Assembly: GCA_964016885.1 (NCBI GenBank)
Contig: OZ024746.1
Span: forward strand, 95,728,001-95,792,000
Source: Eledone cirrhosa
Lineage: Eukaryota
Direction of reading: 5' to 3'
Length of the DNA: 64,000 bases
Part shown: positions 26,430-64,000 of the stretch, piece by piece
Layout: every line of letters starts with the position of its first letter
Numbering within the stretch: the stretch's first letter is position 1
The notes under the pieces: model-generated
Seen by the model: only the letters and a program-made list of their open reading frames with translations
Database searches by the model: none
What the model was told of the DNA's origin: nothing
Program-made: the position numbers and the translations under genes

Positions 26430-28830
26430 TATTTTGCACGTTATCACTGCATTACCAAGCACAGCTCTGTGCACCTTGAGTATGTGCAGTGTGGTTTTTG
26501 ATGGTGCTTGTTCTATCGTATTGAGAGTACTCTTCCTAATATGTGTGCAGTGCTTAGTATTGTTATTTTTTGTATGTTGTATATATTTGTAAGTCCTGGA
26601 GTATTGGTTAAGTATCTGTCTGCTTTTTTTATCATTCCCAGAGCACCTGTAGTTATAGGTATTGGTTCTATTTTCAACATCCACATTCGAGTGATTTCTA
26701 TCTCTAGATCTTTATATTTGGAGAGTTTCTCCATTTCCTTGGAAGATATATTGTCGTCTGTGGGGATAGATACATCAATCAGAAGATATTTTGTTTCTTT
26801 GTAGTACTTGATTATAATATCTGGTCGGTTGGCCTTGATCTCTCTGTCTGTGTGTATTGGTTTTTTGGAGTTTTTTTTGTTTTTTGCAGTTTTCGGTTAT
26901 GGCTTTATTGATTTGTAACTTTAATGGCCGTGATTGATTAATTACAGCCATATGAGCCTTTGCAACATTATTTCTGTTCTTCTGGGAGCAGGTTGTTTTT
27001 TTCATGAATAATCCTGAATTATAAGATATGGTTGAAAAAAGGTTAGCATGTTTGCACTCTCTTGCTCACTTACTCTCTTTGGCGGTTAACCCTTGAAGGG
27101 ATCACATCGAGTGCAAGTATGCTAACCTTTTTTCAACCATATCTTATAATTCAGGATTAAACCTTGTCATACCACGAGGCACATTTGGTTACCATATTTG
27201 TAATACATGGACTACAATAAAGTTATTTTGATACTCGTTTTGAGAAACTCTTCATGCCTCAGTCATTACTTCAAATGTAGTGAGAGATAATTCTCACAAA
27301 AAGAAATTGTATGAAAAATTCTACTATATCTTATTTCTATTAAATATAGTAGTTGGGATCCAGTGGTGCTTACTGGAGTAAGTAACCCTGGGACCAACTC
27401 ACTAAAGGAGTTTTGTTAGTTTCTGTGATATTATTGCAGTTAGGGTTTTATATATTGTAGGCAGGCATGTTATGAGTATGTAGTTTTGGGGTTTTGCTGT
27501 CATTATTCTTGGTGATCAGGGTGGTTTTCCCCTTAGTGAGTCAATCAGGTATTTTTCCTGCTTCTGTCAGCATCTCATTAAGCCCCTTACTCCATGTGGC
27601 CCTGTTAAATATTTTAATCAGAAATTGGCGATCTTGCTTGCTTCTTTTTCATTGTGTTAGACACATCATCTGTTGTGATGTCTTCTCACAATTGTTCAGC
27701 TGCTGTGTCTGTTGTTCTTCCTTGTTCTGTACATGGTAATTTCTCTTCTCCTTCTGCCCATATTTTTCTCCAGAACTCTTCCACTTCTTTTACTTTTGGG
27801 GCTACATTTACTTCTATTTTTCTCTTATTGAGTCCTCTTGAGTTAGAGTGAGATAGCTGGTTTTGTTAAAAAAACGTTTTGTATCTCTGGATTCTTTATG
27901 GTTTTGCAAGTAATTGTTGTTTTAGGCATTCCTTAGTCACTGAGATTTCCTTTTCTGTTATATTATATTTCTTTAGTATTTTTATTTTCGTTCCTATTCC
28001 TAGTTTTTTTTTTTTTTTTCCTATTTCATTTAAGATTGAGAGGTCTTTTTTTATTTTCAACTTTTTTTGTATCTTTGTTTTCCATATTTCTCTGTGTTTC
28101 ATTTTCCTTGCTTCTGTTGATCTAAAGGAGTATCCACTTTCTTTTGTAACAGCAGCAGCTGTTATATAGATTATATTATTTAGCCTTGTGATACTAATGT
28201 TTTTATTCGTGTTATTATGTCTATGATGGTTAGAGTAGCAGTTTTTATAATTGTTGTTGCTTCAATATTAATTTTTATCTTTGGGATGGTGGGGTAGGGG
28301 GGTGTATTCTTTGGTCCATAGGGAGATCTTCTATTGTTTCTTGGATTATTTCTAGCTTTATCCTGTGGTGGTCTTGAGTTTTGTTTTGGAGGTGGGACTT
28401 TTCTACACCTTTCTCCTCATATTTCTTTTCATTTGTATTTTTGGTTGTGTTGTCCTGAATCTATTTTTGTTGTTCAGTAATCTGTGCACCTCTTGGTGTT
28501 GGGGTTTGTTATGTTTTGTTTACTTTATATGTTCTAGGTATGTTGGGTTTTTTCTTCATGTTTTAAGTTCTCAATATATTTTCGTTTGTAGTTGTTTTGT
28601 GTTTGTTATTTGTGTTTTTGTTGTGTATATGCTCTTTTATTTCCGTGACTGATAATTTTTTGGGGTTTTTAATATGTATCTCCTTAAATTTGCTAGTTTG
28701 TTAGCGTCAAGTTTTAAATTAGTCTTTGTTGTTTTTTTTGCCAAATTTTATAAATGTGTATTGTTGTGTTTTCCTTTTTAGGGTGTAGTGTTGTTGTAAA
28801 AAAGCATGAGGAATCGAAACATATTCTTCA
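26430..28830 (-). mobile_element. R4/Dong-like non-LTR retroelement remnant (RT N-terminal part plus restriction-like endonuclease)
   Basis: ANRPDIII...LLIDVSIP...EKLSKYKDLEIEITRMW...GALG...IQKITILSTAHIL at 26510-26840; KGKTTLITK...NYILITCLPTIYK at ~27450-27540. Confidence 0.8.
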
Positions 28831-39132: not shown

Positions 39133-40328
39133 TTAGCCAAAACCAGCTCTAGTTCAATGAAATAAAACCACCTATTTTAACCCTTTAGTTACAAATCCAG
39201 CCAAAACCAGCTCTGGTTCAATGCAATAAAACCACCTATTTTAACCCTTTAGTTACAAATCCAGCCAAAACCAGCTCTGGTTCAATGAAATAAAACCACC
39301 TATTTTAACCCTTTAGTTATAAATCCAGCCCAAACCAGCTCTGGTTCAATGAAATAAAACCACCTATTTTAACCCTTTAGTTACAAATCCAGCCAAAACC
39401 AGCTCTGGTTCAATGAAATAAAACCACCTATTTTAACCCTTTAGTTACAAATCCAGCCAAAACCAGCTCTGGTTCAATGTAATAAAACCACCTATTTTAA
39501 CCCTTTAGTTACAAATCCAGCCAAAACCAGCTCTGGTTCAATGCAATAAAACCACCTATTTTAACCCTTTAGTTACAAATCCAGCCAAAACCAGCTCTGG
39601 TTCAATGAAATAAAACCACCTATTTTAACCCTTTAGTTACAAATCCAGCCAAAACCAGCTCTGGTTCAATGTAATAAAACCACCTATTTTAACCCTTTAG
39701 TTACAAATCCAGCCAAAACCAGCTCTGGTTCAATGCAATAAAACCACCTATTTTAACCCTTTAGTTACAAATCCAGCCAAAACCAGCTCTGGTTCAATGA
39801 AATAAAACCACCTATTTTAACCCTTTAGTTATAAATCCAGCCCAAACCAGCTCTGGTTCAATGAAATAAAACCACCTATTTTAACCCTTTAGTTACAAAT
39901 CCAGCCAAAACCAGCTCTGGTTCAATGAAATAAAACCACCTATTTTAACCCTTTAGTTACAAATCCAGCCAAAACCAGCTCTGGTTCAATGTAATAAAAC
40001 CACCTATTTTAACCCTTTAGTTACAAATCCAGCCAAAACCAGCTCTGGTTCAATGTAATAAAACCACCTATTTTAACCCTTTAGTTACAAATCCAGCCAA
40101 AACCAGCTCTGGTTCAATGTAATAAAACCACCTATTTTAACCCTTTAGTTACAAATCCAGCCAAAACCAGCTCTGGTTCAATGAAATAAAACCACCTATT
40201 TTAACCCTTTAGTTACAAATCCAGCCAAAACCAGCTCTGGTTCAATGAAATAAAACCACCTATTTTAACCCTTTAGTTACAAATCCAGCCAAAACCAGCT
40301 CTGGTTCAATGAAATAAAACCACCCATT
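39133..40328. repeat. 64-bp satellite (~18 units) made of the left end of MITE family B
   Basis: Unit ttaaccctttagttacaaatccagccaaaaccagctctggttcaatgaaataaaaccacctatt; the last unit runs on into a full MITE ending at 40501. Confidence 0.95.
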
Positions 40329-41134
40329 TTAAAGGTTTCCAATTTAAATTAAAATCTTCGAACATAATTTTATTTAAGAACCTTACATTAAGTTACTATC
40401 TTAAAAATGAATTTAATAATTTTAGTAAACCCCTCAAAATTCTTCAATAATTAATTGAAATAGAGTGTATTTTATTAGGAATGTAGTCATGAAAGGGTTA
40501 ATGTTAACCCTTTAGTACCAACCTGGCCAAAACCTGTTCTGATTCTATGAAATAAAACAACCCATTTTAAAGGTTTCCAGTTTAATTAAAAATCTTCCAA
40601 CATAATTTTATATAAGAACCTTACTTTAAGTTACTATATTAGTAATGAAATTCTTCATTAATTAATTGAAATAGTGTATTTCATTAGAAATAGTGTATTT
40701 CATGAAAGGGTTAAAAAATGTGTAGTGAAGTTTGTAAATTTCATTTTATCAGTTTAAGTTACAGTTATGTTTTTTATTTTATGAATGTGATGCACCACAT
40801 TAGCAAAACATTACAGGATGTTAAGAAATAATACTACACATTTTCGCAACAATCTATTCATTAGTAAAGACATTGTAAACATTTGAATTGACAAACCCAT
40901 TGTTAAATATTTTCTGCCACATCATTATAGGATGTTAAGAGTTATTATAAAATAGTTACATTTAAAAAAAAATATTTGTAAGAAGCAAATAATTCCATTA
41001 ATGATTTGCTTTTATATAAAAAAAATATTAATTGCATTAAATAAATACAGTAGCATCATATTTTTTTTACACGTCCTTATAAATATTGTTTGCTTTCATG
41101 TGAAAAGCTTTTCTTTAATACAATTCAAACAACA

Positions 41135-44100: not shown

Positions 44101-44296
44101 ATCCAATGACGATGAATGTATCACTGAAATAATACTATATCTAATTATGTCAGGACTCTAGAATTTCATTCCTGCTCATATTTTTCTTGTAGTTGTTGAA
44201 AAATGTTGAAGTCAACAGTCTCACTGGTATCAGAGGACCTATAAAGCCTATTGGTATGGCCTCTCTCTCTCTCAACATGGTCTCTCTCTCCCGACA

Positions 44297-44339: not shown

Positions 44340-44571
44340 CAACATGGACTCTCTCTCTCGCCATAGCCCCCACCTCTTTCTCACCCGACATAGCCCCCAC
44401 CTCTCTCTCTCAGCATAGCAAATAAAAATAAAAAAACATGGTATAAGGAAAGACAACAGAAGAGCTAAAAATATCGATTTTAATAACATCTATTTGAGAA
44501 AATAATAAAAATGTTGTTTTTTAAATTTTTTTTCTATGAGGCTATAACAGATATTTGTGTTTCTTTTTCAG

Positions 44572-47500
44572 GTCTGAAGCCAAATTTGGTGATTATCTTA
44601 GTAGTCTATTCTGTAACCTTCAAGCCATTAATAATCCAAGCAAGTAAAAACCAATATATTATTGAGTATTGGACTAAAAAAGCTGAAAAACAAATGGAAA
44701 TCATTACAAATATGCCAACACACTACAAACCCCTTTATGACATTAAACATATTAAGACAAATAAACTTTTAGATGAACAGAATTTACAGAAAAAGTTGAG
44801 AAGCATAATAGGCCCAAGAAAACTTAAGCTAACTACTAATTTCGAATTCCAAATTTTTTTTAATGAATCTGTGATTACATTTGAAATATTTAGTTATAAA
44901 CACAGATTTCATGAGACTCATATTGTATATATCAACCATTCTAGGGATTTAGTGACCATCAGACCAAATTTAACATTAATCAACAAAAATCACAAATTTT
45001 ATAAAAAAAGGAAAATTAAAGCGATTAAATTAAAGCCCATTGAAAAATTATATCATTATAATAGCTCAAAATTTATTCTTGATATCATACAAAGAAACCA
45101 TCTACATCTTAATAATTCTATAATAAGTAGCTTTTCTAATAGCACAAAAGTAAAGGTAGTTTATTTATTGGTAATTAAGGATAACTTAGGAGATCTCCTT
45201 TTAAATAATACATTTGAAAAACAGACCTTTAATATTTGTTTTCTTTCACATTATAATTTTAAAATCTGTGATAGATATAACCTTAAACAATTGGGAGGGA
45301 AACATTCAACTGTAAATACTAAAATATGGGTTCTTATAGAAAATGCTTCCATGCATATTTCAGAAATTGCATGGTACTTCCTTAAATATCAAGGGTTAAA
45401 CTGTTTTGTAAATTATGTTTATTTAGTCAATTACAATTTTCTATTTAAAAAGCCTAACAGTAAAACAATTCATTTTATAATTATTTGTAAAATTAACTCT
45501 CAAAATAGTACTTTTTCATCAACAGCATTTGATGATAGCGTTAAAGATGAAATAGTTTATCAAAATCTTAGTTCTTCATTGGGTTCCTCTGTGATAGTAA
45601 ACCATAATACAAGTGAAGCAGACCTCATTGGTGAGAAATCTGAAAAACAACTCCAAAATATTAACCCACTAATTAAAGTTTGTGTGTTAAAATCAAATAT
45701 AACAATTTTATATTTTAAAAGTCTTTACTCCAAACATAAAACAATTTCTCCTAGAATATTATCAATATTTTGCATTTCTATAACAAAAGCCCGAAGTAAC
45801 TCTTCAACCCCCAAAAATGTAAATTGTGAATCTAGTTTGAAGAATTTTCAAAGCAAAATCATTTATGAACCCAAAACTGCTGTTCCTCACCTACCCTACA
45901 TGCTTTCATCTAATTTATTTCATTTTGATATTCAAACCCAGTCTCTATTTTTTGTTAAGTCTACATCTTCCATGATTTTTACTCAATTAAATTTTGTTGA
46001 AACAATTACTTTGATTCCAAGCAACAGTCTATTTATAACAGAATCTGTCTTACAAATGCTCAACAACACAAATAATATAAAGTCATTTGACAAAAATATA
46101 ACACAAGCAAAAAATTACAAACTTTTAACTTCTAGAATCAAACGAGATATTAGTTTTGGAAATAGAAAAAGGCTACATTTAAAAAAGAATGATGATGATA
46201 TATCATATTTAAAGAAACGAATAAAAAGATTTAAAATCCAACCACCAAAAAAATTTACAAAACAAAGAATAATTTTAAACCAAAAATTATATGATGAAGC
46301 TGATACAGAGGAACTGGAAAATAAATGCTCACAAGAAAGAGAAAAGGAGGAGGAATCAGATGATAGGCGTAAAAATATATCTGAAATGTTTGATAAATTT
46401 AATTCAGACCAGAGAGAATATTTTGAAGAAAATAAGCAAAGAAAAAAAAAATTTTTTCCATGGAAAAGAAAAAAAATACAGAAATTTGTAAAGTCTAAGA
46501 AAAAAGTTTCTAGACTATTTGGCTCAAACAAAGTAAATAAAATAGAATTATCTTTACACAACACAGCAGTTACAAATGGGAATCAAGACAACCAATCAAT
46601 TGCAATTTCTCTGGTTTGTATTCATGAAGCCAATTTTATAACATATGGAAATAAGATACCAGTGACATTAAACTGTTCTTCTCCTGGTAAGGTTGCTCCC
46701 AAACCTGATGATATAATAGTTTATTTGTATTGCACCCCTAAAATAAATAGCAATGGTAGTAATGGAGATAAAGTTGATATAGCCTTAAATTGTATTCCTG
46801 GATTGAGTGCTACAACCAACGGCTCCCTCTTACCAGTGAATCTTCACTGTACAAGTGACCTTGATATGCCTTCTTATGAAGACTTTCTTCATATATCTCT
46901 AAATTGTTTACCTATATTAAATTATAACCATTCTGTAAGTGATAAAGCCACCCAACGAATGGTAACTAGTAAAACATTTGAACTTTTCATGACAGGAAAT
47001 AAACTAGGCATATCAAAAGAACACCAGAGAAAACTCTCTGTATCTCTTAAATGTATAACACGGCGAGGTTTTGCAATAGATGGGAAAACTATAGATGTTT
47101 ATGTACATTGTATACCAGGTTACATATCTAGAACTCCCCGTAAGAAACTTGTCATTACAAAATCAAAATTTTCAAGAAAACAAAGAAAGACGTGTCCATA
47201 TCGTAGACTAAAGAAGGGAAGGAGGTTATATATAAAAAGATATTCTTTGAAAGATAAAAGAAGAAAAGTTTTGTTGGTTGGTAAAACCAAGAAAAGGGGA
47301 TCACATTCAAGTGTAGGGCAGCCTAAAATGAAAAGTAGAAAACAGTCCATACAAAAAGGGACAAAACGAAAATATTTAAAAAAATATTTTCCTACTAAAC
47401 CTTGTAAAAAGTTTATGAATAGAATACCTACTGCTCCCAGACCTATTTCATCTACTACACTGAAAATGCTCAAAATATATCAAATTTTGTCTAAAAAAAC

Positions 47501-50500
47501 TGAATCATTCTCACCAGTGGCTACTGTTAATTTGACTAAGAGAAGAACAGATATAAATCTACAACCCACAACACTTTCTATTCCATTGACACATTTAATT
47601 AAAAAACAAAATTATAGTACAACAGAATTGATTCCTTCATTTAAAACATCACAAAATGTAATGAAACACTTTTTGAAATTTACACAAGCATATAAATCAA
47701 CTCCAGTTAGAAAATCATCTTATATGGTGACATCAAAAATTTCGTCAGTCTTTACAAATGTACCAATAGAAATTACTTCTAAATTTAGCTTGGATATTGT
47801 AGATGCCACAAATAAAACTCTAATAACAAGTGCAGGTACAAGATTATTTCATAATATCTCACATAAAGAAGGAACAACATTTTCTAATTTGTTTCTTAGA
47901 ATCCAATCTGAGTCCCTTCAATATAACCAAAGTAAAAGTATTCCTTTAAAAGGGTTGAGTTCCTTAGAAATAAAAACTTTTCTGTCAAAACTGATACCCT
48001 ACTCCACAACAACCATGAATTCATCATTTACATTTAAAATGCATTTATTAGGACAACTTCCGACATTTAGAAGTACTGAAAATACATCTAAAACACCGGA
48101 AGTATACCAAACTACACCTATCCAATGGAGATTTTCAAGGAAGCAAAACAAATCAGTAGACAATTTGTTTCAAAGTTTATCCTTTACACCGAATCAGTCA
48201 TCCATATCCAAAATATATTTGAAGCAAACTACGGAACAAAAAGCTGTTAGCAAACTAATAACATATGACATACTTTCAAAATCAAATAAGACAAAATTAT
48301 TTGGCAGAGAACATGGGGTGATAATAACATCCCAATATACATTCTCTGAAAAAATAAAAACACAAGCAAAATATTGGCTAATATCAAAATACTCATTAAG
48401 TACAAAATATGTTTATACATTTTTAACACCAAGCACCTTTTCTGATCAGATGACTACACCATTTACCAGAGGAAAATTATATAAAGTACAGTTTATACCA
48501 ACTGCATGGTCTACTAAGAAAAGTACACTCCAGCCTGTTTTTCTCAGCATAGATGGTACAAAGAAGCCAACAGATATTCCAGATCAACATAAACTGCAGT
48601 TTACTTTATCTGTAACGTTACAGAGTTTTGACAAAGCTTTCACTCCAAGAGATAAATTACTTACTTCTGCATCATCAAACATATCTTTGATTACAGTAAA
48701 GTTTGAAAGATCAACTTTAAAAGAACAGCTGATACAGATTACCAAAATTGATGATAAGGATGATGATGTTGATGATGACAAATCTGATAAAACTGATTTA
48801 AAATCTAAAACTATTCACGGAGACTCAAAAATGTTCTTAGCTTTGTCTGGGGTAGAATTTGACAAGAAACATTTAAGACAAGAAAGGAAGTTAATATTTC
48901 AAGTAACAGTATTTCCTGACTATACTCTACAAGAAGAAGAAATCGTAACCCCTGCCATGTTCCAGTCAACTGAAGAGACTTTTTACCATGAAGTCACTTT
49001 TATAAGTCAAACATATATGTATGGCAGAGAGCTGTATGAGGGAAAAGAAACAGATTCATTAATAGAACTGTCAGTCCCCTTAACTATTTTACAAGAGATG
49101 TCAATTATGCCCCCTAAAGGCAGAGATTACATTGACTCTGATGTTGATACAGAAGGGACCGAGTTAATCACCCAACAAATGATACTAAAACATGAAACTG
49201 AAGTGGAGGGTAAACATGTATTTGAAATTATGAAAATCTCAAGAGAGGGTAAAATAAAAATGGAAGAACAATCAAGTGATCCTTTCAGTTCCACAACAAT
49301 AACATTTGAGAAAACTTTGACTATGTTTACAAAGGATTTGTCAACTGGACCAATGGCACATATAGAGTCTGCAAGATTGACAGAGATTATCATTCCATAT
49401 AGAGATTTGACAGAAACAACCATTCCAAGAAATACTACAACAGAATTGTTGGGTGTAAAGGAATTACAAATCGATACTTTTACAAGAGTAACCCCAATAT
49501 TTAGAATTAGTGTGAGTGCTAGTACACTAAATATGACATGGGGTTTACAAGACAGTTCTAGAATGGTTGAACAAATTATAAGAAATTTGAGTAAAACGGA
49601 GACAATTCAAAAATATAATGTGACAGGATTATCAAGTCATGATTTAAGTTCAATATTTAGATTTATTACAACAAATAATGAATCCATGATAAAATTAATG
49701 ACTGAAAGAATTCATTCAGAGTTAACAACAGCAATGACACTGAAAACAGAAGTAGATGTAGGTCTGCAGAGAAGCATGATAGTGAAATATATAGATAAAG
49801 TGACTTCATTAGTTGTAAAATATGAAGATACTACATCGAGGCAGCAATTTTCCAAACCAGTACTACAAGAAATGTTTTTATTGAGCACAAGTGTTAGTCT
49901 GATTATTACTAAAACTCTAGGAGAAACTACAAGATATGATATCTTATCTTTGATGAAGACACCCTATCAGAAAACTAGAATTATAAAAACACAGTTGATT
50001 TCAGACGTTTTAACCAAAGAATTCTCCAGAAAAACAGATAATGGAAGTAAAACTACCAAAATTGCACTAGACAGAATACCACAAATAGACACAGAAGAAT
50101 TAGTTGTGACTAAAGAAGCTATTAAGGTTCTAGAAAAAGACACAGAGGGATTAGTTGTGACTAAAGAAGTTATTAGGGTTCCAAAAATAGACACAGAGGG
50201 ATTAGTAGTGACTGAGGAGGCTATTAGGGCTCCACAAATAGACACAGAGGCTATGAGGGTTCCACAAATAGACATAGAGGCTATGAGGGTTCCACAAATA
50301 GATACAGAGGGATTAGTAGTGACTGAGGAGGGTATTAGGGCTCCACAAATAGACCTAGACGGATTAGTTGTGACTGAGGAGGCTATTAGGGTTCCAGAAA
50401 TAGACACAGAGAGATTAGTAGTGACTGAGGAGGCTATTAGGGTTCCAGAAATAGACACAGAGAGATTAGTAGTGACTGAGGAGGCTATTAGGGTTCCAGA

Positions 50501-53500
50501 AATAGACACAGAGGCTATGAGGGTTCCAGAAATAGACATAGAGGGATTAGTTGTGACTGAGGAAGCTATTAGGGCTCCACAAATAGACATAGAGGAGATT
50601 AGGGTTCCACAAATAGACATAGAGGGATTAGTTGTGACTAAAGAAGTTATTAGGGTTCCAAAAATAGACACAGAGGGATTAGTAGTGACTGAGGAGGCTA
50701 CTAGGGCTCCACAAATAGATATAGAGGATATAAAGGTTCCACAAATAGACATAGAGAGATTAGTAGTGACTATTAGGATTCCAGAAATAGACACGGAGGG
50801 ATTAGTAGTGACTATTAGGGTTCCAGAAATAGACACAGAGGCTATTAGGGTTCCACAAATAGATGCAGCGGAATTAGTAGTGACTAAGGAGGGTATTAGA
50901 GTTCCAGAAATAGACATAGAGGGATTAGTAGTGACTGAGGAAGTTATTAGGGTTCCACAAATAGACATAGAGGGTATCAGGGTTGCACAAATAGACATAG
51001 AGGGATTAGTTGTGACTATTAGGGTTCCAGAAATAGACACACAAGGATTAGTTGTGACTAAAGAAGTTATTAGGGTTCGAAAAATAGACACAGAGGGATT
51101 AGTAGTGACTGAGGAGGCTACTAGGGCTCCACAAATAGACACAGAGGCTATGAGGGTTGCACAAATAGACATAGAGAGATTAGTAGTGACTATTAGGGTT
51201 CCAATAATAGAAACAGAGGAATTAGTTGTGACCAAGGATAGTATTAGCATTCAAAGACGAAGACAAATATCACATACTGTAAATGTTATAATTTCTATTC
51301 CGCAAGTACCTGAAGATAGATCAACCATTTCTCAAGATGTTGCTAGAGTTCTAGAAATATATATGAAAGGATCATCTGTTGCTAGAGATGTGACAATTTC
51401 ACAAAGACACACACAAGGATCAACAACTGATAGAGGCATTGTTGTTAGTAGAGAGACTGTGACAGTTGCACAAATATACACAGAGGGATCAGTTTCAAGT
51501 AGTTATGTCATTGTTGCTAAGGACGCCATTACAGTCTCACAAATACATATAACTCAACCAGTTTCTACTAGTTCTGTTGCTGTTGTTGCTAAGGACACCA
51601 TTACAGTTCCACACATACACATAGCTCAACCAGTTTCCACTAGTTCTGTTGCTGTTGTTGCTAAGGACACCATTACAGTTCCACACATACACATAGCTCA
51701 ACCAGTTTCCACTAGTTCTGTTGCTGTTGTTGCTAAGGACACCATTACAGTTCCACACATACACATAGCTCAACCAGTTTCTACTAGTTCTGTTGCTGTT
51801 GTTGCTAAGGACACCATTACAGTTCCACACATACACATAGCTCAACCAGTTTCCACTAGTTCTGTTGCTGTTGTTGCTAAGGACACCATTACAGTTCCAC
51901 ACATACACATAGCTCAACCAGTTTCTACTAGTTCTGTTGCTGTTGTTGCTAAGAACACCATTACAGTTCCACACATACACATAGCTCAACCAGTTTCTAC
52001 TAGTTCTGTTGCTGTTGTTGCTAAGGACACCATTACAGTTCCACATATACACATAGCTCAACCAGTTTCCACTAGTTCTGTTGCTGTTGTTGCTAAGGAC
52101 ACCATTACAGTTCCACATATACACATAGCTCAACCAGTTTCCACTAGTTCTGTTGCTGTTGTTGCTAAGGACACCATTACAGTTCCACAAATACACATAG
52201 CTCAACCAGTTTCCACTAGTTCTGTTGCTGTTGTTGCTAAGGACACCATTACAGTTCCACAAATACACATAGCTCAACCAGTTTCCACTAGTTCTGTTGC
52301 TGTTGTTGCTAAGGACACCATTACAGTTCCACAAATACACATAGCTCAACCAGTTTCCACTAGTTCTGTTGCTGTTGTTGCTAAGGACACCATTACAGTT
52401 CCACAAATACACATAGCTCAACCAGTTTCCACTAGTTCTGTTGCTGTTGTTGCTAAGGACACCATTACAGTTCCACACATACACATAGCTCAACCAGTTT
52501 CTACTAGTTCTGTTGCTGTTGTTGCTAAGGACACCATTACAGTTCCACATATACACATAGCTCAACCAGTTTCTACTAGTTCTGTTGCTGTTGTTGCTAA
52601 GGACACCATTACAGTTCCACATATACACATAGCTCAACCAGTTTCTACTAGTTCTGTTGCTGTTGTTGCTAAGGACACCATTACAGTTCCACAAATACAC
52701 ATAACTCAACCAGTTTCCACTAGTTCTGTTGCTGTTGTTGCTAAGGATGCCATTACAGTCCTACAAATACACATAGCTCAACCAGTTTCCACTAGTTCTG
52801 TTGCTGTTGTTGCTAAGGACACCATTACAGTTCCACAAATACACATAGCTCAACTAGTTTCCACTAGTTCTGTTGCTGTTGTTGCTAAGGACACCATTAC
52901 AGTTCCACAAATACACATAGCTCAACCAGTTTCTACTAGTTCTGTTGCTGTTGTTGCTAAGGACACCATTACAGTTCCACAAATACACATAGCTCAACCA
53001 GTTTCCACTAGTTCTGTTGCTGTTGTTGCTAAGGACGCCATTACAGTTCCACAAATACACATAGCTCAACCAGTTTCTACTAGTTCTGTTGCTGTTGTTG
53101 CTAAGGACGCCATTACAGTTCCACAAATACACATAGCTCAACCAGTTTCTACTAGTTCTGTTGCTGTTGTTGCTAGGGACACCATTACAGTTCCACACAT
53201 ACACATAGCTCAACCAGTTTCTACTAGTTCTGTTGCTGTTGTTGCTAGGGACACCATTACAGTTCCACATATACACATAGCTCAACCAGTTTCTACTAGT
53301 TCTGTTGCTGTTGTTGCTAGGGACACCATTACATTTCCACAAATACAAACAGATAGATTAACTGTTGCTAGGGAGGCCAACATTTCGCAACTACAAACAA
53401 AGGAGGGATCAGCTGCTGGTATTAGGGATGATATTACAACTACACAAATACACATAGATACATTTCACATTATTAAGGATGGTGTTGCTAGGGAGATTGT

Positions 53501-56500
53501 TACTAGGAATGGTGTTGCTAGGGAGATTGTTACTGGGGATGGCATTACTAGGGATAGTGTTGCTGGGGAGATTGTTACTGGGGATGGTGTTGCTAGGGAG
53601 ATTGTTACGGCTACACAAATACACACAAATAAAGTTCTTGTTGCTAGGGATATTGTTACTAGTGATACTGTTGCTAAGAAGATTGTTACAGCTACACAAG
53701 TACATCTTTCTACTAAAGGTTTTGTTATCTGGGATGGAGTTACATTTCAACCAATTGACACAAAAGGATCTACTGTTTTACCAAGTGATGTAGAGGGATC
53801 ACTTGTTACTATAGATGCTGTGACAGTTCCTCAAATTAGTCAAGATAAATTGGTTATTGGTAGGTTTACTCTTCAAATACCCCAGATAAAAATGTACACC
53901 TCATTTGTTACTCAGATATCTGTTGCCTTTAGACAAACTGATATAGATACTACATCTCTTACAACTAGGGATTCTGCCATTATTTCAGAAATAGTTAGTG
54001 TTGGATTACTTGATTCTAGATATACTGTGGGATTAATTGTTTTGGGAGATTCTGTTAGTGTTTCTCAAATTACTGTTTTACCAAGTTATACAGAAAGCTC
54101 AGTTGTTAGTATAAAGGCTGTGACAGTTCCACAAATTAGTCAAGATGAATTGTTTATTGGTAGGTTTACTGTTCAAATGCCCCAGGTAAACATGTCTACC
54201 TCATTGGTTACACAGGTAACTGTTATCTTTAGACAAACTGATATAGCTATTACTGAACCAGAAACAACTAAAAGTGAATCTCTAGTTTCTAAATATATTC
54301 TTTCAGAGACGCAGCTTTATGGAGCACTTCTTGTAACTAGGGATGATGGTGTTGTAACTAGGGATGGTGTTGTAACTAGGGATGATGGTGTTGTAACTAG
54401 GGATGTTGTTGTAACTAGGGATGATGGTGTTGTAACTAGGGATGATGGTGTTGTAACTAGGGATGTTGTTGTAACTAGGGATGATGGTGTTGTAACTAGG
54501 GATGATGGTGTTGTAACTAGGGATGGTGTTGTAACTAGGGATGTTGTTGTAACTAGGGATGATGGTGTTGTAACTAGAGATGTTGTTGTAACTAGGGATG
54601 GTGTTGTAATTAGGGATGGTGTTGTAACTAGGGATGTTCTTGTAACTAGGGATGTTCTTGTAACTAGGGATGGTGTTGTAACTAGGGATGTTCTTGTAAC
54701 TAGGGATGATGGTGTTGTAACTATGGATGTTGTTGTAACTAGGGATGATGGTGTTGTAACTAGGGATGTTGTTGTAACTAGGGATGTTGTTGTAACTAGG
54801 GATGATGGTGTTGTAACTAGGGATGTTGTTGTAACTAGGGATGATGGTGTTGTAACTAGGGATGGTGTTGTAACTAGGGATGTTGTTGTAACTAGGGATG
54901 ATGGTGTTGTAACTAGAGATGATGGTGTTGTAACTAGGGATGGTGTTGTAACTAGGGATGTTGTTGTAACTAGGGATGATGGTGTTGTAACTAGGGATGT
55001 TCTTGTAACTAGGGATGGTGTTGTAACTAGGGATGATGGTGTTGTAACTAGGGATGTTGTTGTAACTAGGGATGATGGTGTTGTAATTAGGGATGGTGTT
55101 GTAACTAGGGATGATGGTGTTGTAACTAGGGATGTTGTTGTAACTAGGGATGGTGTTGTAACTAGGGATGATGGTGTTGTAACTAGGGATGTTGTTGTAA
55201 CTAGGGATGATGGTGTTGTAATTAGGGATGGTGTTGTAACTAGGGATGTTCTTGTAACTAGGGATGGTGTTGTAACTAGGGATGATGGTGTTGTAACCAG
55301 GGATGTTCTTGTAACTAGGGATGATGGTGTTGTAACTATGGATGTTGTTGTAACTAGGGATGTTGTTGTAACTAGGGATGATGGTGTTGTAACTAGGGAT
55401 GTTGTTGTAACTAGGGATGTTGTTGTAACTAGGGATGGTGTTGTAACTAGGGATTATGGTGTTGTAATTAGGGATGGTGTTGTAACTAGGGATGTTCTTG
55501 TAACTAGGGATGGTGTTGTAACTAGGGATGATGGTGTTGTAATTAGGGATGGTGTTGTAACTAGGGATGTTCTTGTAACTAGGGATGGTGTTGTAACTAG
55601 GGATGATGGTGTTGTAACTAAGGATGTTGTTGTAACTAGGGATGGTGTTGTAACTAGGGATGATGGTGTTGTAACTAGGGATGATGGTGTTGTAACTAGG
55701 GATGTTGTAACTAAGGATGTTGCTGTTGTAAGTCAGGATGATGGTATTGTAACTAGGGGTGTTGGTGTTGTAACTAAGGACATTGTTGTTGTAACTAGGG
55801 ATGGTGTTGTAACTAGGGGTGTTGGTGTTGTAACTAGGGACATTGTTGTTGTAACTAGGGATCATGTTGTAACTAGGGGTGTTGGTGTTGTAACTAGGGA
55901 CATTGTTGTTGTAACTAGGGGTGTTACTAACGTTTCACAGAGAGTCTTTAGTGGATCAACTATAATTCAGGGCAATGTTACATCAGCAGAAGTTGACATA
56001 TCTCTTATAAGCAGGGTTTCTTATATCCCCTACACTAATAGGTTAGATTTTACTATGGATGTAGATGTACCACATATGAGAAGGGATAGAGTTAACATTA
56101 CCATTCCTTATATTGCCACAGAGAAATCATCTATTGGTAAATATATTTCTGTTCCTTGGTATAATATTACAACTATTAGTGACGATGGTGTAACAGTCCC
56201 TCAGATAGTTGAACATAGATCTGTTGTCACCTCTTTACATACTTTTTCAACACCCACAACAGAAAAAGAAAGTTGGAAGACATCTTTACTAGACCCAGTA
56301 GTTTTATACTCTACAATAGTTTTAACAACATCACTTACACTAGGAGATTTCTATACAAATACAAAACAAATTGATACAGATAAAAGTAAGCTGACCGTTA
56401 TACCAATTCTATTAACAAGTCCCAGTGAATTACTTGGTATAACTATTAGTCCAATGAGCTTATCGATAACAACAGAAAAATTTACAGAGACAAACACTGT

Positions 56501-59500
56501 TACTTCTCTAAATGTACTCACTGAAATTATTAGTAGCACTGAAACTGATGATGTATATATTTTAGCTGAGACAACAGAAATGACAATGGAGACCACTGAT
56601 CCTTTATATTCAATGTTAGAAATGTCTGACTATGAAAGTTTTCATAAAGAAAAGTTATCTGAACATTTTAAGCAAATGTCACAGTTAACTGACAGGGATA
56701 TGGAGATCTTAACACCTATGTCTTTAATGGCACCATGGTATCATTCTGCAGATCATCTTAGCTCAGTTTGGGATTCTAGCCAACAAAGATATATGACAAG
56801 CATTGGAATTTCTTCTATTCAAGAATATTTAGGAAAAACACCAGAAACCACAGAAATTTCAGAAGATTTCTCTACAAGAACGGAAAAATTAATACCCTAC
56901 ACTGATTTTATATCTAGTTTTAGGGTACCATCATTTTCTATGGATGTCACTGTAGAGAGTATAAAACCCCCAAAATTTGATGGTATTCGTGAAATAAAAT
57001 CTTACATGACAGATATTACTACATCTTCTACCATTGATATTGCCCATGGAAGATTACAAGGAAATAAAAGTAGATATAGTGAAGAATTAATTCATTTTAC
57101 ACATGCTTCACAAAATGTAAGTAAATGTTCTGAAAGGTTAACTCCTTCTATAAGCAACCTGGTGAATGCAAGCAGATTTACTGAGGGGTTAATTCCTGTT
57201 GTTTCTTCAAGAAGCAGTCAAAGATATGTTTTAATTCCTTCTTTGAGTTCAGAAATGTTAAACTTAACCAGAACTAAATACATTCCTTTAACTACTGAAA
57301 TGGAATACACATTAGACCCAACAGAGCTGTCTGAAGACCACGAAGTCGAGGGGACAACAGATGTAACATTTATATTGGAAAATACGCTACTGTTTTTACC
57401 ATTTGCAAGTCCACCAGTGCTAAATGAATTTATGAGTGAAACCCTTACCCAAGAAACTTCAACAGATGTAGGAGATACAAGTTCAATTCCAACAACTACA
57501 AACATTCATTTAGATAAAGAATTAGAAAGCACACAAATCCAAGCATTATGGAAATCTGACATTTTAAAAAAGACTTCTGATAAGTCAAAATATGATAAAG
57601 ATGATAAAATTATTTCAAGAATCATACACACTGAAAATCCATTTGAAATATATTTTCCACTCTTAAAGTTAGAAAGCCAAGAAACTATTTTAAAAAGTAA
57701 AACATCTTCAGAAGTTCTGCCCATGTTTCCATCAACACAGGCAAGTATATTGTATCAGGATTTGAAATATGAATTACAAACTGAAACAAATGTGTATGAC
57801 TTCTCAAGTAAATTTTATAAATACAGAACTGGTTTAACAATAAATCAGCTAACAGAAAAGCCATCTAGGGATATAATGTTATCAAAACCTGTTAAGTCAT
57901 TAGATGTAAGAACAGATGGTGTTACTAAAAGTCTGATTAAAAGTAAAATGAAAACAATATTGGATCACACAAGACCAACCAGAAGATATTTTAGGAAAAG
58001 AGATATAAGTGAAACTTTTTATCCATATCAAACAAGTACACCAGGCAGCTTTATTGATATTATAGATATTTATGATAATGTCATAGTGAAGAAATTAAAA
58101 GTTAGGGGTTATGTAACAGAAGATCATGGTGTTATAATCGAAAATGTTACGTTTGTTTATGTTAAAGCATCTAAAATGTCTACACACAAAGAACATATTT
58201 TAAACAGTTCTGTTTTAGATCTACAATTACATGAAAGCACATACAGAAAAATAAAGTTTGCTAAACATGATAGAAGTGAATTATTAAAGATATTTACAGA
58301 AATATCAATGATGCCAGTAAATATATCTAAAATTGTATTAGACTTTACACTATCAATGTCAACACCAAAATTAGCACAAATATTAAATAACTCTACTTTA
58401 GGGGTGAGCTATATTGAAACAAAGCAACTAATGCTAGTTTCCCACACACCCTTAATCCCAGTAATCACACCTGAACATCAAACAGAAGGATATTCAAAGG
58501 AAATGATATTACCTTCTTTGGTTACACAAGCAAGATTTACTAATATAACAAATGCTACTGCATCACAGAGTCAAACACGGGTTTCTGTTAAAGAAAGAAG
58601 AGAAGGAATGACATCCAAAGCATCAGTTTATAGGATAATAAAAACCAGTTCAGCAATAGAAACAAAGATAAAGAAATCTGCATTAGAAGTACCAATAGCA
58701 ACACAAGAACCAATGAATAGAACTGCCAGTCCTAAAATGAGCAGTGAAATTAATTTAAGCATTAGGACAAACATTTCTCATTTATCAACACAACAAACTA
58801 AAACAATCCAAGATAGAATAACATTTGATTTATTGGAAAAACTTCACACAACTTTATTTACTCTAGCTGTTATTTCAAACGATACATCAAAAGAGTATTT
58901 TATTATTACACCGGCTGGTAGTGACATGCAATCATTTATAGCTACAGCAGACACGATACTAGACCAAACATCTTTAGCTACAGCAGACACGATACCAGAC
59001 CAAACAACTATAGCTACACCAGATACAATACCAGGCCAAACATCTACAGCTATACCAGACACGATACCAGACCAAACATCTATAGCTACACCAGACACAA
59101 TACCAGGCCAAACATCTATAGCTATACCAGATACAATACCAGACCAAACATCTATAGCTATACCAGACACAATACCAGACCAAACATCTATAGCTATACC
59201 AGACACAATACCAGGCCAAACATCTTTAGCTATACCAGACACAATACCAGACCAAACATCTATAGCTACACCAGACACAATACCAGACCAAACATCTATA
59301 GCTGCAGCAGACACGATACCAGACCAAACATCTATAGCTACACCAGACACAATACCAGACCAAACATCTATAGCTGCAGCAGACACAATACCAGACCAAA
59401 CATCTATAGCTACACCAGACACAATACCAGGCCAAACATCTATAGCTGCAGCAGACACGATACCAGACCAAACATCTTTAGCTACAGCAGACACAATACC

Positions 59501-62500
59501 AGACCAAACATCTATAGCTACACCAGACACAATACCAGGCCAAACATCTATAGCTGCAGCAGACACGATACCAGACCAAACATCTTTAGCTACACCAGAC
59601 ACAATACCAGGCCAAACATCTATAGCTATACCAGACACAATACCAGGCCAAACATCTATAGCTACACCAGATACAATACCAGACCAAACATCTATAGCTA
59701 CACCAGACACAATACCAGGCCAAACATCTTTAGCTATACCAGACACAATACCAGACCAAACATCTATAGCTACAGCAGACACAATACCAGACCAAACATC
59801 TATAGCTACAGCAGACACAATACCAGACCAAACATCTATAGCTACACCAGACAAGATACCAGATCAAACATCTATAGCTACAGCAGACACAATACCAGAC
59901 CAAAGATCTATAGCTACACCAGGCAAGATACCAGATCAAACATCTTTAGCTACAGCAGACACAATACCAGATCAAACATCTGTAGCTATACCAGACACGA
60001 TACCAGACCAAAGATCTTTAGCTACAGTAGACACAATACCAGACCAAACATCTATAGCTACACCAGATACAATACCAGATCAAAAATCTATAGCTACAGC
60101 AGACACAATACCAGATCAAACATCTGTAGCTACACCAGACACGATACCAGACCAAACATCTTTAGCTACACTAGACACACTACCAGACCAAACATCTATA
60201 GCTACACCAGACATGATACCAGACCAAACATCTGTAGCTACACTAGACACAATACCAGACCAAACATCTATAGCTATACCAGACATAATACCAGATCAAA
60301 CATCTTTAGCTATACTAGACACAATACCAGACCAAACATCATTTGAAACGTTTCTTTTTAAAAAATCTTCAAGTGAAAGCAAAATATTCACAACTATGAA
60401 ACCTAAAATAAAGCAGGATCTGTTTCAAGTAAGTGTACAGAACACAACTATGTTACCCACTGCTCAAAACATATCACAAGTAACTGAATACATGATTAAA
60501 CAAGCCATAATAATAACTAATGCCACAACTAAATTAGTTGAAATATCAAGCATAGTATTCCCTACAATAGCTAGTATCACTACATCTGAAATAGTACATG
60601 TTAACAATATATCAGATATTATATTGTCTGTAGCTACAGTTACTGTAAAGCAGATGTATAATACAGCAACTGAAATATCAAAGAAACCTCTGGTTTTTCC
60701 TCATAGTTTAGACTATCTAGATTCCCCTTTAACTACAAGTACAACTACATTATTTAGAAATTTAAGTGTGTTCCAAACAAAAGATGAAAGTAGTTTAAAA
60801 CATTTTATTCAACTGAGTATTAGAGATCAGTTAAATTTACAGACAAAAGAAACAAGGAAAACATCAAGGAAAGCTCAAAGTGAAGCAACAGAACAATTGA
60901 CATCTGAAGTTCCCCTGAAAGTTAGTCATGTTTCCATGACAATGCCACCAACTGAAACAAGTGAGAAAATAAATACATCATTAATAAGTGCAACTGTACT
61001 ACCTTTAATGAAGGAAATAGATAAAACTAAAACTCAACGAACAATTTCAAAGAAAAGTACAATTCTGTTTGAGGCATTGCACTTTGATAGAGGTCATAAT
61101 ATTTCAACATTAGTTTTAGAAGAAGATGAAGACATATCTCACTCCACGTTATTTTATATCAGAGAAAACATCACTCTACCAAAACAACCGTTTATTGCTG
61201 TAGATGTTTTACTTACTAAAGAAACTGGAGACGAGCTGCCATATTACCAAACTGATAGTTACTGGGATATTTCCATACACCGTTCTTTAACAACTAAAGT
61301 ACCCAGTAAAGTCTCAACAAAGAGAGGAACACAAATACAAATAACATCACAGGATCTCTCAACACAAGCCTGGTTATTTAATGCAACAATATCTTTTCCC
61401 CATGAACTGAATATTACAACACCAAAAGTTCTAAAAATTACAACAATATCTGACAAAGCAATTCACTCTCAGGACAAACAAGTAACCAAAACAAAATTTC
61501 CAGTTATCCGAATAACATTTGTGACATCACATTACAGTAACTTTAGTGAAACAAAGTCTCCATTAATTCATCCAAACAAGACTATAATTGAAATGGCCAA
61601 ACCTAGTAAGGTAGAGGCCATCACAACATATTCAGGTATAAATAATATAACAAAGTCATTAATAAGAACTGAAATAGATGGTTATTTCCTGTCATCATCA
61701 ACATCTAAAACAATTCAGGATTCACAGCTAGTCAGTGCACCATTGATGGAAATCACAAAAGCTAAAACACCAGACATTTTAATAGCAAGCAACATAACTA
61801 ATTTATTAACTCATTTAACCAAACCTAAAACTGATGCGTTGTTAAAGGATAGTACAGAAATCAAACCAACATCCTCCATAACTATAACAGAGATATCATC
61901 AAATTTCATCCAGGATATATTGCTATACAGTAAAGGATCATATAAAATGATTTCATCACATAGACCAAGACATATTTATCAAACATCAAGTACAGTTAAT
62001 GAAACATTAATTCTAGTTTCAACTATACCAATGAAAATGTACATAAGAAAATCTCTAGGTTTCGCTCACAACAGAAGTTTGTCTTTCTATGTTTCAGAAT
62101 ATTTTACCTCAGAATCCAGCACAAAAGAATCCATATTAGAAAGTACAACTTTTGTATGGCATAAATCATTAATAACTACTTTGGGTTTAACTGATATATC
62201 AGTAAAACCTGAAAAATCAATAATATACATCAACACCACCATTTCCCCAATTATACTGACCTCTGTAATAAAACCATTTAGTGGTTGGTATGCCTTAGAA
62301 AGATCATTTGCTTCAAGATATAAATGGGAACAAACTTATAAGGCAGAGAAATCAACCCTTCATTTAAAGACCTTGAAATCCACTACAACTTCTTCATTAT
62401 TAAAACTAACTCTTATGAGTGTACCTAAAATTGTGGATGATTTTAATAGACAACTAAATTTATCTGATTTTAAAATCCAGATTTCAACACTGCCTTTTAC

Positions 62501-64000
62501 GTCAACACACACAAGACTCACTCTTAACACTGGTTATAGTACTGAACATTTTAATTTTACATTACTCCTGCACCCCTTAAAAACTAAAACTGGAGTAGAT
62601 CTTAAACATCTTTTCTCAAATCTTACGTCTATGACAAATTTAGTTAGTTTAGTTTACTCAAAGGTTTCAACTTTAAACTCGTCAATAGATTTTTGGCAGA
62701 AAAGCATTTCTATTGAGGTTACACCAAAACTACATGTTTCTTCATTAGTTTCATTGAAACATTATTTTGAGCAAGTAACACAAAGAGCAAAGATAATATC
62801 AAACACATCAGTGGTAATTGTTACAAATGGAACTGAGTCTGAACAAATGGATTCTGTATTAGAAACACAGGGTCTAATGAAAATACAGACAGTAACAGGA
62901 GTGACAAAACAACTAAAAAGAACAAGTTTCGCTGAAATGTCTAAATTAAAATTACATCTTTATACTACAAAATTAATGCACATTTCTCTTCATACATTTT
63001 CAGTTTCTCTTGCTCCTACTAAGTTATTTCTTATTGCTTCTTCTTCATCCAGTAGTCCTTCACTACCAACAAATATTTCTCTGTCTTCAACTGCTACTTC
63101 TACATATAAAGTTACATTTGAACAGAAATTTAATCAAACAGAGCCGACCATAAGATTACTAATAAATCAGTCAACTACTGACATCATATTTCATAATCAA
63201 AACACATCAACAACAGTGAAGCCATTAACAACTATGGAGCCAACTTACAGTGAATCCTATGATATAGTATCCTACTTCAGTAGAGTTAAATTAATCCCAT
63301 TCTTTTCTTTGTCATCAATAGGAGATATTATGTCAACAAATATGGTGTCAATTCAACAAAGTAATAAAACCGAAAGTAAATATTCAAAATCACATTTTAA
63401 ATTACATAATAAAACAACTACAGCTGTGGGATTTATTGAAACTATTACCAACTTTAGTGATAAAAAAAATGTTTCCGAAATTACTCCTATAACAACCATT
63501 CCAGTGAATATATCAACACAAACTTTGCTAACTAATGTAAGTGAATTTTCCATTCCATTCACAACTGATCTTAGTTTTCATTTCAGAACAATCTATCCTA
63601 CAACTATACTATCTTTTCATCAGATTACAAGTACAACTGGCCCACTGAATACAACAGTATCTATTCATTGGACAAAGGAATTAACACTCTTCCAAGAAAT
63701 ATCTATAGTCAGTCAGTCAGGTGTGATTTCTCCTCAAGAGGCGTCTCATCATTTTCTGTTTACTGTATCACCGTCACAAAATATATCAGAATTTACCATT
63801 CTAATGACTGGATCACCTTTTCTTAAAACATTTGACGATATTATGTTTACCCCAGCATCATTTTCGCAGATATCAGAAGGTACCAGCTTTCTAATGGGAC
63901 CATCTGTTGTTGAAACATCAAAAGATGTCCTATTTACTACAACCATACCACAGGTAGTTTCAGAAGGTACCAGCTATCTAATGGAACCATCTCTTGTTGC
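44572..64000 (+). CDS. Giant coding exon (at least 6,475 codons, open at the window end) of a probably secreted, repeat-rich, Thr/Ser/Val/Ile-rich protein
   Basis: Acceptor ttgtgtttctttttcag|gt at 44570-71. Frame with codons from 44574 reads (G)LKPNLVIILVVYSVTFKPLIIQASKNQY... I read it without stops to ~47.5 kb, and spot checks at 48, 50, 52, 54, 56, 59, 62 and 64 kb are in the same frame. The ORF track lists no closed ORF in this frame, as expected if there is no stop. Repeat units are multiples of 3. An in-frame ATG also lies at 44511 (last upstream stop 44484-86). Confidence 0.9.
50085..51245 (+). repeat. Coding tandem array 1: IDTEGLVVTEEAIRVPQ (51-nt unit with 30- and 42-nt variants)
   Basis: Recurrent atagacacagagggattagtagtgactgaggaggctattagggttccacaa; variant lengths keep the frame. 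Confidence 0.9.
51515..53340 (+). repeat. Coding tandem array 2: ~25 x 72 nt, AKDTITVP(Q/H)IHIAQPVSTSSVAVV
   Basis: Near-identical 72-nt units, from aaggacgccattacag at 51519 to 53319. Confidence 0.95.
54330..55925 (+). repeat. Coding tandem array 3: ~80 units of VVTRD(D)G / VVTRDV (18/21 nt)
   Basis: gttgtaactagggat(gat)ggt units; length variants are multiples of 3. Confidence 0.95.
58938..60340 (+). repeat. Coding tandem array 4: ~39 x 36 nt, TSIATPDTIPDQ (mucin-like PTS)
   Basis: acatctatagctacaccagacacaataccagaccaa units. Confidence 0.95.
63786..64000 (+). repeat. Start of coding array 5: 87-nt (29-aa) period, SEGTSFLMGPSVVETSKDVLFTTTIPQVV
   Basis: tcagaa recurs at 63786, 63873 and 63960; truncated by the window end. 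Confidence 0.65.

Follow-up and report, generated by a model that had tools for sequence, protein, structure and literature searches.

A cysteine-bearing protein repeat near the start of a giant secreted-type glycoprotein exon in Eledone cirrhosa

Excerpted accounts of gel-forming mucins describe three VWD-C8-TIL assemblies, Pro/Thr/Ser-rich (PTS) regions, CysD domains, and a cystine knot, in a layout that places Cys-rich assembly domains beside long, Cys-free glycosylated chains (PMC4948705). The flatworm proteins Mlig-ap1 and Mlig-ap2 are presented, again in excerpt, as secreted adhesive proteins of 5,000-15,000 amino acids (aa) that are rich in Lys and Arg and that carry Cys-rich parts and repeat arrays (PMC6410801). 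Similarly, excerpts on the cuttlefish egg-case proteins SepECP1 and SepECP2 portray cationic, N-glycosylated, Cys-bearing proteins that form dimers and networks (PMC4500399). Herein we describe a module of eight Cys-bearing units encoded in a giant exon of Eledone cirrhosa, which might serve a comparable assembly role. The DNA analyzed (hereafter the window) comprises 64,000 nucleotides of contig OZ024746.1 (assembly GCA_964016885.1, forward-strand positions 95,728,001 to 95,792,000), and the positions given below count from its first letter.

The cysteine repeat and its units

A preliminary description of this DNA listed eight decapeptides that share a Cys-containing motif. All eight (IAISLVCIHE, IPVTLNCSSP, IIVYLYCTPK, VDIALNCIPG, LPVNLHCTSD, LHISLNCLPI, LSVSLKCITR, and IDVYVHCIPG) are present in a single plus-strand frame, where they span positions 46599-47120. 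Unit 1 begins with the codon for frame aa 705 at position 46599, and position 47123 is the last base of the codon for aa 879. The Cys codons start at 46617, 46674, 46731, 46791, 46848, 46905, 47052, and 47109, corresponding to frame aa 711, 730, 749, 769, 788, 807, 856, and 875. The resulting gaps are 19, 19, 20, 19, 19, 49, and 19 aa; a spacing of about 19-20 aa was noted previously for the first six units. All units carry the signature [ILV]-x-[IV]-x-[LV]-x-C. As first written, the motif was hydrophobic-x-hydrophobic-x-L-x-C, and this form holds everywhere except at the Leu position of unit 8, where Val precedes x-C.

The shortened pattern [ILV]x[LV]xC occurs eight times in the entire 6,504-codon frame, with 8/8 occurrences inside the module, and every one of the eight Cys residues in aa 691-885 lies within it. 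Eight matches were reached in none of 20,000 shuffles of aa 30-1000 (mean 0.60, maximum 6) and in none of 20,000 shuffles of aa 691-885 (mean 0.27, maximum 3). Likewise, random placement of eight Cys residues in 175 aa never gave at least six of seven gaps of 19-20 in 200,000 trials. These shuffle and placement tests are post hoc, given that the pattern was taken from the finding itself.

The assertion that the DNA has diverged, such that the repeat is visible only in translation, is also borne out. None of the 94 rows from Tandem Repeats Finder lies over the region, and pairwise comparison of the 36-nt units (28 pairs) gives mean identities of 46.5% for DNA and 30% for protein. No pair differs in the second codon base at the four core positions (identity 1.00; background 0.26), whereas third-base identity (0.40) is close to its background (0.34). 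This contrast fits selection on the amino acid pattern, although the argument is partly circular. The eight-unit Cys repeat is real, and it exists at the protein level.

The seven-residue strand originally taken as the unit is only part of it: the full unit is 19 residues long and has a second conserved half. The eight 19-mers align without gaps, with hydrophobic residues at positions -6, -4, and -2 relative to Cys at 0. Pro or Gly is found at +2/+3 in five of the eight units and Gly or Pro at -9 in five, while positions +4 and +6 are each hydrophobic in 6/8. When linker residues are shuffled within each unit, the +4/+6 hydrophobic count has a p value of 2e-5, which becomes about 2e-4 after correction for nine possible position pairs, the pattern having first been spotted by eye. 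Because of these consensus positions, each unit reads as a long strand, a Pro/Gly turn, a short strand, and a Gly/Pro turn. The tally of eight is correct for Cys units, but it overlooks a candidate ninth unit, R0, that carries Asn and is located 19 aa before unit 1. The module is laid out as follows.

46542-46562, plus strand: unit R0 (IELSLHN), Cys-less, with Asn at the Cys position, in exact register 19 aa before R1
46599-46928, plus strand: units R1-R6, six tandem Cys units of 19-20 aa (Cys at aa 711, 730, 749, 769, 788, and 807)
46929-47018, plus strand: R6-R7 insertion of 30 aa (Cys gap of 49), with no unit-like score in the top 22 positions
47019-47132, plus strand: units R7-R8 (Cys at aa 856 and 875)

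R0 is the best-scoring frame position after the eight units (5.2, versus 12.0-25.3 for the units themselves and 4.2 for the next position). It is not reported above 2 bits by a hidden Markov model of the unit, and we regard its status as a ninth unit with moderate confidence. A degenerate unit at Met835 within the R6-R7 insertion is unsupported, as this position falls outside the top 22 scores. Neither P0004, a hypothetical protein of Octopus vulgaris discussed below, nor any of the six window frames contains an extra unit copy that exceeds 2 bits.

The module was initially called unrecognized, and this label has survived broad searching: there is no significant match in Pfam, PHROGs, NCBIfam, PDB sequences, or 1.84 billion protein representatives. 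The representatives did return two matches, P0002 (nematode, 7,287 aa, E 3e-84) and P0003. Both were rejected as near-perfect tandem-repeat open reading frames (ORFs) whose scores sum weak pieces; the best single stretch yields 5.5 bits for P0002 and about 3 bits for P0003. A word-index search of proteins of 334-2,000 aa gave 0/304 candidates, and no match emerged among 8,000 candidates scored when the first 980 exon residues (aa 30-1009) were compared with proteins of 30-3,560 aa. PHROGs produced no match to the module and NCBIfam one sub-threshold match. PDB sequences gave none with either a single sequence or a two-unit profile, and two matches to a one-unit profile (E 0.75 and 1.5), covering a single strand each, are attributed to chance. 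The non-array parts of the frame have no Pfam match. Among bacterial and archaeal genomes, 0 of 133 pattern matches were confirmed, phage genomes gave no match at E 10, and the ESM Atlas gave no usable match with low recognition. Because these last searches came back empty, there is no sign of a horizontal origin. A description of the module repeat was also not found in a literature search, which left out most subscription journals.

The host frame and its octopus relative

The module lies near the beginning of a very long open frame, for which the following exons are relevant.

44572-64000, plus strand: giant coding exon of a secreted-type glycoprotein, spanning frame aa 29 to at least 6504 and still open where the window ends
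44193-44253, plus strand: candidate mini-exon of 61 nt, phase 0 to phase 1, which would splice in frame to the giant exon

The frame, more than 6,470 codons long, is stop-free from 44487 to 63998. Its first 968 exon codons, up to aa 997, have no stop at 28% GC (P ~7e-38), and the other five frames contain 38-129 stops. These 968 stop-free codons therefore establish that the module is coding. A polypyrimidine acceptor at 44571/44572 probably marks the start of a single giant exon. An in-frame Met at 44511 was considered as the start and judged intronic because it sits in a poly-T tract ahead of this strong acceptor. The acceptor of the mini-exon (score 12.3) is second to that of the giant exon (12.6) among the candidates listed, its donor is GTATGG, and its phases match; the scores come from a home-made scan, and the mini-exon is a candidate put forward from sequence. 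Upstream of the exon, 269 plus-strand ORFs (at least 36 aa) and six minus-strand ORFs gave four Pfam matches at E<=0.01, with none at the curated cut-off and none that reveals the identity of the gene.

Several features of the frame are relevant to secretion and processing.

44586-44642, plus strand: the only strongly hydrophobic segment (aa 34-52), with a Kyte-Doolittle 19-aa mean of 2.05 (sole stretch above 1.7)
46134-46154, plus strand: furin-type RIKR followed by DIS (aa 550-556), one of only two R-x-[KR]-R matches in the frame
46437-46526, plus strand: basic segment ahead of the module (aa 651-680), net charge +14
47157-47426, plus strand: segment rich in Lys and Arg that follows the module (aa 891-980), net charge +36, with 40% Lys plus Arg over aa 886-985
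57984-58010, plus strand: second dibasic site, RYFRKR-DIS (aa 4500-4508), kept in O. vulgaris at residues ~2250-2258

The hydrophobic segment is a candidate signal peptide or type II anchor. Asn residues are found in N-glycosylation sequons more often than expected, both in aa 30-997 (21/77, p 0.004) and downstream of aa 997 (73/106, p 6e-24), and the same is true of P0004 (147/243, p 1e-32). Secretion and N-glycosylation of the protein are thus strongly indicated. Because the sequon enrichment places the protein in the secretory pathway, a disulfide role for the module Cys residues is plausible. The exon encodes 19 Cys residues, none of them adjacent, of which eight reside within the 165-aa module and just one is found in the 5,500 aa after aa 973.

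Furin-type cleavage follows the rule R-x-K/R-R, and the second match to it in the frame is another RIKR at aa 578-581. An acidic patch (aa 591-650) then precedes the basic segment. The RYFRKR-DIS site lies within a 172-aa block that is 65% identical to O. vulgaris. Both KR-D sites of the frame run on as DIS, suggesting that a convertase cleaves the product as a polyprotein. Ahead of the first furin-type site, aa 130-450 (44874-45836, plus strand) form a hydrophobic, Asn-rich region with seven Cys residues and 12 sequons. This region has no family match above cut-off in Pfam, PHROGs, or NCBIfam and may be another unrecognized folded domain or a pro-region.

When exon aa 560-1860 were compared with proteins of 3,561-11,332 aa, one of 3,039 candidates proved to be a real relative, and the only one: P0004, the O. 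vulgaris hypothetical protein, which is 7,276 aa long. Three long alignments show it to be colinear with frame aa 994-6504 (32-38% identity), and 18 ungapped blocks reach 55-80% identity. A dibasic site and TVPQI-type repeats are common to both proteins, but P0004 is without the fresh 17-, 24-, 6-, and 12-aa arrays of the E. cirrhosa frame. It also has no precomputed Pfam domain. The two proteins come into register at the following residue.

47466-47468, plus strand: Met aa 994, equivalent to residue 1 of P0004 by BLASTP

The P0004 model begins about 120 residues past the last Cys unit, and the module is outside its span. Because P0004 has 147 sequons yet no signal-like N-terminus, its model is probably 5′-truncated, such that the public O. 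vulgaris entry is short of about 1,000 N-terminal coding residues, any signal sequence among them. Conservation between the two species peaks in the block at aa 4736-4824 (58692-58958, plus strand), with 80% identity over 89 aa and no known domain. Other conserved islands (aa 1119-1161 and 4263-4333) are 74-75% identical, and these segments are candidates for functional motifs. Overall, the host appears to be a fast-evolving giant octopod glycoprotein.

Possible structures and roles of the module

The interpretation we favor, though only tentatively, is that the module forms an elongated, self-associating beta-repeat and that interchain disulfides lock it close to the N-terminus of a structural glycoprotein released by a convertase. 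The process would begin with translation of the giant exon, which is shown by the open frame and the downstream orthologue, and with the strongly indicated secretion and N-glycosylation of its product. A convertase might then cut RIKR|DIS at aa 553/554, which would leave the module ~130 residues from the new N-terminus and between polybasic segments. The pattern suggests that nine units could stack as an elongated beta-structure whose alternating hydrophobic faces are buried against the same module of other chains. The in-register Cys residues would be oxidized in the secretory pathway to lock the chains covalently, and the basic flanks might bind polyanions, perhaps yielding a cross-linked glycoprotein gel, cement, or matrix. 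In this scheme the coding status, repeat anatomy, sequon excess, Cys concentration, and dibasic sites are observed, and we infer the cleavage, fold, oligomeric state, disulfide partners, and tissue.

In favor of this proposal, the repeat, its register, and its second unit half are well above chance. Moreover, the concentration of Cys residues matches both the mucin layout as excerpted (PMC4948705) and that of the giant Lys/Arg-rich adhesive proteins, likewise in excerpt (PMC6410801). The sequon-based secretory location and the two KR-D sites that run on as DIS also favor the proposal, as does, weakly, the single-sequence AlphaFold2 model, whose five strands coincide with the core motifs of R1 and R3-R6. 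The likely role, assembly of a structural secretion by a Cys module rich in beta-structure, is of a known kind. The beta-strand ladder proposed earlier is also favored by the sequence pattern, with its strict alternation, two turns, and second short strand, but the AlphaFold2 models are too poor to strengthen it.

Several observations weigh against a self-associating, disulfide-locked repeat. Both AlphaFold2 models have low confidence, with a predicted local distance difference test (pLDDT) score of 31.8 for the single sequence and of 43.5 for a three-row alignment of the protein's own units. Foldseek gave no matches at E 0.001 for the pLDDT 31.8 model, which is too poor to be informative. The P0004 model is without the entire first 993 aa, no other protein covering these residues was found in the searches described above, and the region could be broken or absent in Octopus. 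The start codon and upstream exons were not found in the scan of 275 upstream ORFs, and the module itself is without significant sequon excess (5/17, p 0.12). Furthermore, both blocks contain an even number of Cys residues (6+2), an arrangement equally suited to pairing within a chain, and the Asn that replaces Cys in R0 is what a buried ladder with no need of a disulfide would predict. Finally, Pro is present at -5 in two of the eight units (R2 and R5) and would disturb a parallel stack.

If a self-associating, disulfide-locked repeat is correct, then octopods polymerize a giant glycoprotein by using a beta-repeat with one Cys per unit rather than the VWD and cystine-knot machinery of mucins. 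The locus would also offer a compact, expressible cross-linking module of 200 residues and a lead to the composition of octopus secretions such as mucus or egg cement. Octopus oviducal mucoproteins (PMC8976471) and octopus mucus (PMC11431876) have been described, and the excerpts of these reports link neither to this gene.

Nearly as likely, in our estimation, is a monomeric, two-sided beta-solenoid in which each unit forms a 19-residue coil with Ile/Val/Leu ladders and a buried Cys/Asn ladder. The Cys residues would then be free thiols or form intrachain bonds, and the module would act as a stiff spacer or binding surface that does not cross-link chains. The strand-turn-strand-turn anatomy is compatible with one coil per repeat, and R0 has Asn in place of Cys in exact register; Asn and Cys interchange in solenoid ladders. 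In addition, the outward position -1 is Asn, His, or Tyr, which are typical stacking residues, in six of the eight units. A solenoid is less easily reconciled with Pro at -5 in R2 and R5, with strands that are unequal (four versus two inward residues), or with eight free thiols, which would be unusual in a secreted protein. Nor does it appear in the output of AlphaFold2, which reportedly favors solenoids for repeat sequences, although both models have low pLDDT. Failure of single-chain prediction would also be accounted for by an obligate interchain fold, and perhaps the module is an animal-encoded, lengthened triple beta-spiral, in which three chains form a thin fiber and Cys at position g might staple the trimer. 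We consider this unlikely. The published consensus, as excerpted, has hydrophobic residues at c, e, g, k, and m and Pro or Gly at j (PMC3150272). With Cys as g, a register chosen after viewing the sequence, the units conform at c (8/8), e (8/8), g (8/8), k (6/8), and m (6/8), but j is Pro or Gly in just three of the eight (p 0.21), or in five when i is accepted as well as j. The repeat length is 19-20 and not 15 (a-o), although natural triple beta-spirals can have longer loops, and there is an additional invariant hydrophobic residue at -6. No viral fiber-shaft match was found in Pfam, PHROGs, phage genomes, or PDB sequences, and no adjoining trimerization domain was recognized. To our knowledge, the fold is known only from viral fibers. 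By title, the reports found in our literature search deal almost entirely with viruses or phage-borne proteins, a result that does not establish the absence of the fold from animals. If the spiral were real, a viral-fiber fold would gain a cellular animal example that trimerizes a giant octopus glycoprotein.

The even Cys numbers (6+2) and the extracellular environment would also suit a compact globular beta-domain, either sandwich or barrel, with four intrachain disulfides and with strands that arose by internal duplication and merely recall the B-strand of an immunoglobulin (Ig) domain or the central strand of a Sushi domain. The Cys at the end of the strand and the terminal C-x-P-G of R4 and R8 resemble Ig/Sushi motifs. 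This arrangement is improbable given that Ig, Sushi, EGF, and other Pfam matches are absent at E<=10 and that the module is without Trp, and a repeat fold is a better fit to a periodicity that is nearly perfect and that always places Cys at the same end of the strand. It is similarly doubtful that the region lies outside the working protein, having been cut away, spliced out, or added as a lineage-restricted extension absent from O. vulgaris. In favor of such dispensability, the O. vulgaris model starts at a Met equal to aa 994, no protein match was found among the 8,000 scored for aa 30-1009 or the 1.84 billion representatives searched with the module, and dibasic runs are present on either side of the module. 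Opposing this view are the 968 stop-free codons at 28% GC (P ~7e-38), the excess of sequons before aa 997, a repeat seen at the protein level whose third codon positions are saturated, and the probable 5′-truncation of P0004 (147 sequons, no signal-like N-terminus). Lastly, aligned Cys thiolates and nearby His residues might bind Zn or Cu as a metal-binding ladder that hardens or cross-links a secretion. His residues are indeed located within two residues of Cys in R1, R5, and R8, at -5 in R6, and at -1 in R0, but their position is not constant, there is no CxxC or other chelating pair, and disulfides are favored in the oxidizing secretory pathway. We judge this to be the least probable of the options, and very improbable.

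Other repeats of the window and comparison with known systems

The remainder of the frame contains younger arrays. Val/Ile/Thr-rich arrays built on a TVPQI-type core are found at 50079-51247 (plus strand; 17-aa unit, 51 bp) and at 51511-53347 (plus strand; 24-aa unit, 72 bp, 25.5 copies, 97% identical). P0004 has seven degenerate matches to this core, which therefore appears to be an old repeat that was recently re-expanded in this lineage. We rejected the idea that the Cys unit derives from the TVPQI-type repeat (hhalign probability 0.1%, 8 versus 40 units). A 6-7-aa VVTRD(D)G unit (18-21 bp) is repeated about 83 times at 54331-55920 (plus strand), with no copies in P0004. This array matches Pfam Bflower_3 (PF21786) at 59.5 bits, above the curated cut-off of 34 (E 4e-16), a match that could reflect either composition or a genuine array of beta-hairpins. 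At 58929-60340 (plus strand), a 12-aa Thr/Pro/Asp unit (36 bp) is present in 39 copies, with about one copy at the equivalent place in P0004, and its match to Drf_FH1 (E 1e-29) is probably a proline-periodicity artifact.

Outside the frame, a decayed retrotransposon-like piece at 18460-19011 (minus strand) has a weak RVT_1 match (E 0.008), and translated fragments at ~26300-28650 are presumably also decayed and retrotransposon-like, resembling long interspersed elements. Young non-coding minisatellites are located at 11815-12659 (88 bp x 9.6, 97%), 15633-16376 (15 bp x 49.6, 92%), and 39135-40332 (64 bp x 18.7, 98%). A short interspersed element recurs at ~130-470, 21950-22230, and 26038-26430 with mutually similar translations, and we presume that it is akin to an octopus element of this class (SINE).

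Among known folds, curli CsgA and proteins of the HET-s type are two-sided beta-solenoids with Asn/Cys ladders. The module resembles them in its imperfect repeats of ~19-21 residues, alternating inward residues, Gly turns, and Asn/Cys interchange. It differs by having no sequence match to them, an Ile/Val/Leu/Cys core rather than Ser/Gln/Asn ladders, and Pro in two of its long strands. Leucine-rich repeats have an LxxLxLxxN/C core, whereas the core of the module alternates strictly, its Cys is two residues past Leu, and it has no Pfam match to this family. An Ig domain has a core Trp and an F-strand Cys, a Sushi domain four Cys residues, and an EGF domain six; none of these patterns is found in the module, which has no Trp and no corresponding Pfam or PDB match. 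The triple beta-spiral builds the shafts of adenovirus fiber and reovirus sigma1, according to excerpts (PMC3150272, PMC7565637). Like this fold, the module has a long strand, Pro/Gly turn, short strand, and loop, as well as the c, e, g, k, m spacing, and it departs in its period of 19-20, extra hydrophobic residue at -6, invariant Cys, and secreted animal host. The likeness is a lead rather than grounds for membership.

The host protein is similar to Mlig-ap1 and Mlig-ap2 in its size, basic regions, long repeats, and lineage-restricted sequence. However, the Cys-rich parts of those proteins are known domains (C-type lectin, VWD, C8, TIL, EGF, and TSP1), unlike the module. The basic regions span ~30 and ~100 aa here, versus 3,600 in the Mlig-ap proteins, and no homology was detected. 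With SepECP1 and SepECP2 the host shares a cephalopod origin, cationic character, N-glycosylation, and Cys residues. As excerpted, the SepECPs are far smaller and carry 50-55 Cys residues in three dense domains with the motif CX2GX2CCXGCCX8-9C, a pattern that is absent from the exon, with its 19 dispersed and nowhere adjacent Cys residues.

The analogy to the cross-linking domains of gel-forming mucins holds in so far as the sequence is different and the likeness is at most functional, but mucin domains and PTS regions did not emerge from the window. This window holds neither the C-terminus of the protein nor exons further out, and the mucin-domain negatives apply to the window alone. Unlike gel-forming mucins, the host has no VWD, C8, TIL, CysD, or cystine knot there: Pfam gave no VWD-C8-TIL match in the non-array frame, the module, or the 269 upstream plus-strand ORFs, and none is precomputed for P0004. 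CysD (WxxW) is excluded for the module, which is without Trp and without a Pfam match. A PTS domain requires at least 40% Ser plus Thr and 5% Pro in 100 aa. None of the 6,475 exon residues falls in such a stretch (maximum 37% Ser plus Thr per 100 aa), compared with 111 of 7,276 residues in P0004. The host also differs in carrying a single Cys in each 19-aa unit instead of domains dense in Cys, and in having 22.6% Ser plus Thr overall, a strong N-sequon excess, and Val/Ile-rich arrays. Like the mucins, it appears by sequence to be secreted and glycosylated, given its sequon excess and one hydrophobic N-terminal segment. We do not class the protein as a mucin, but it may work like one: the glycoprotein is giant and apparently secreted, its central exon is huge, and it combines tandem arrays rich in Thr with end-confined Cys residues that could polymerize its chains.

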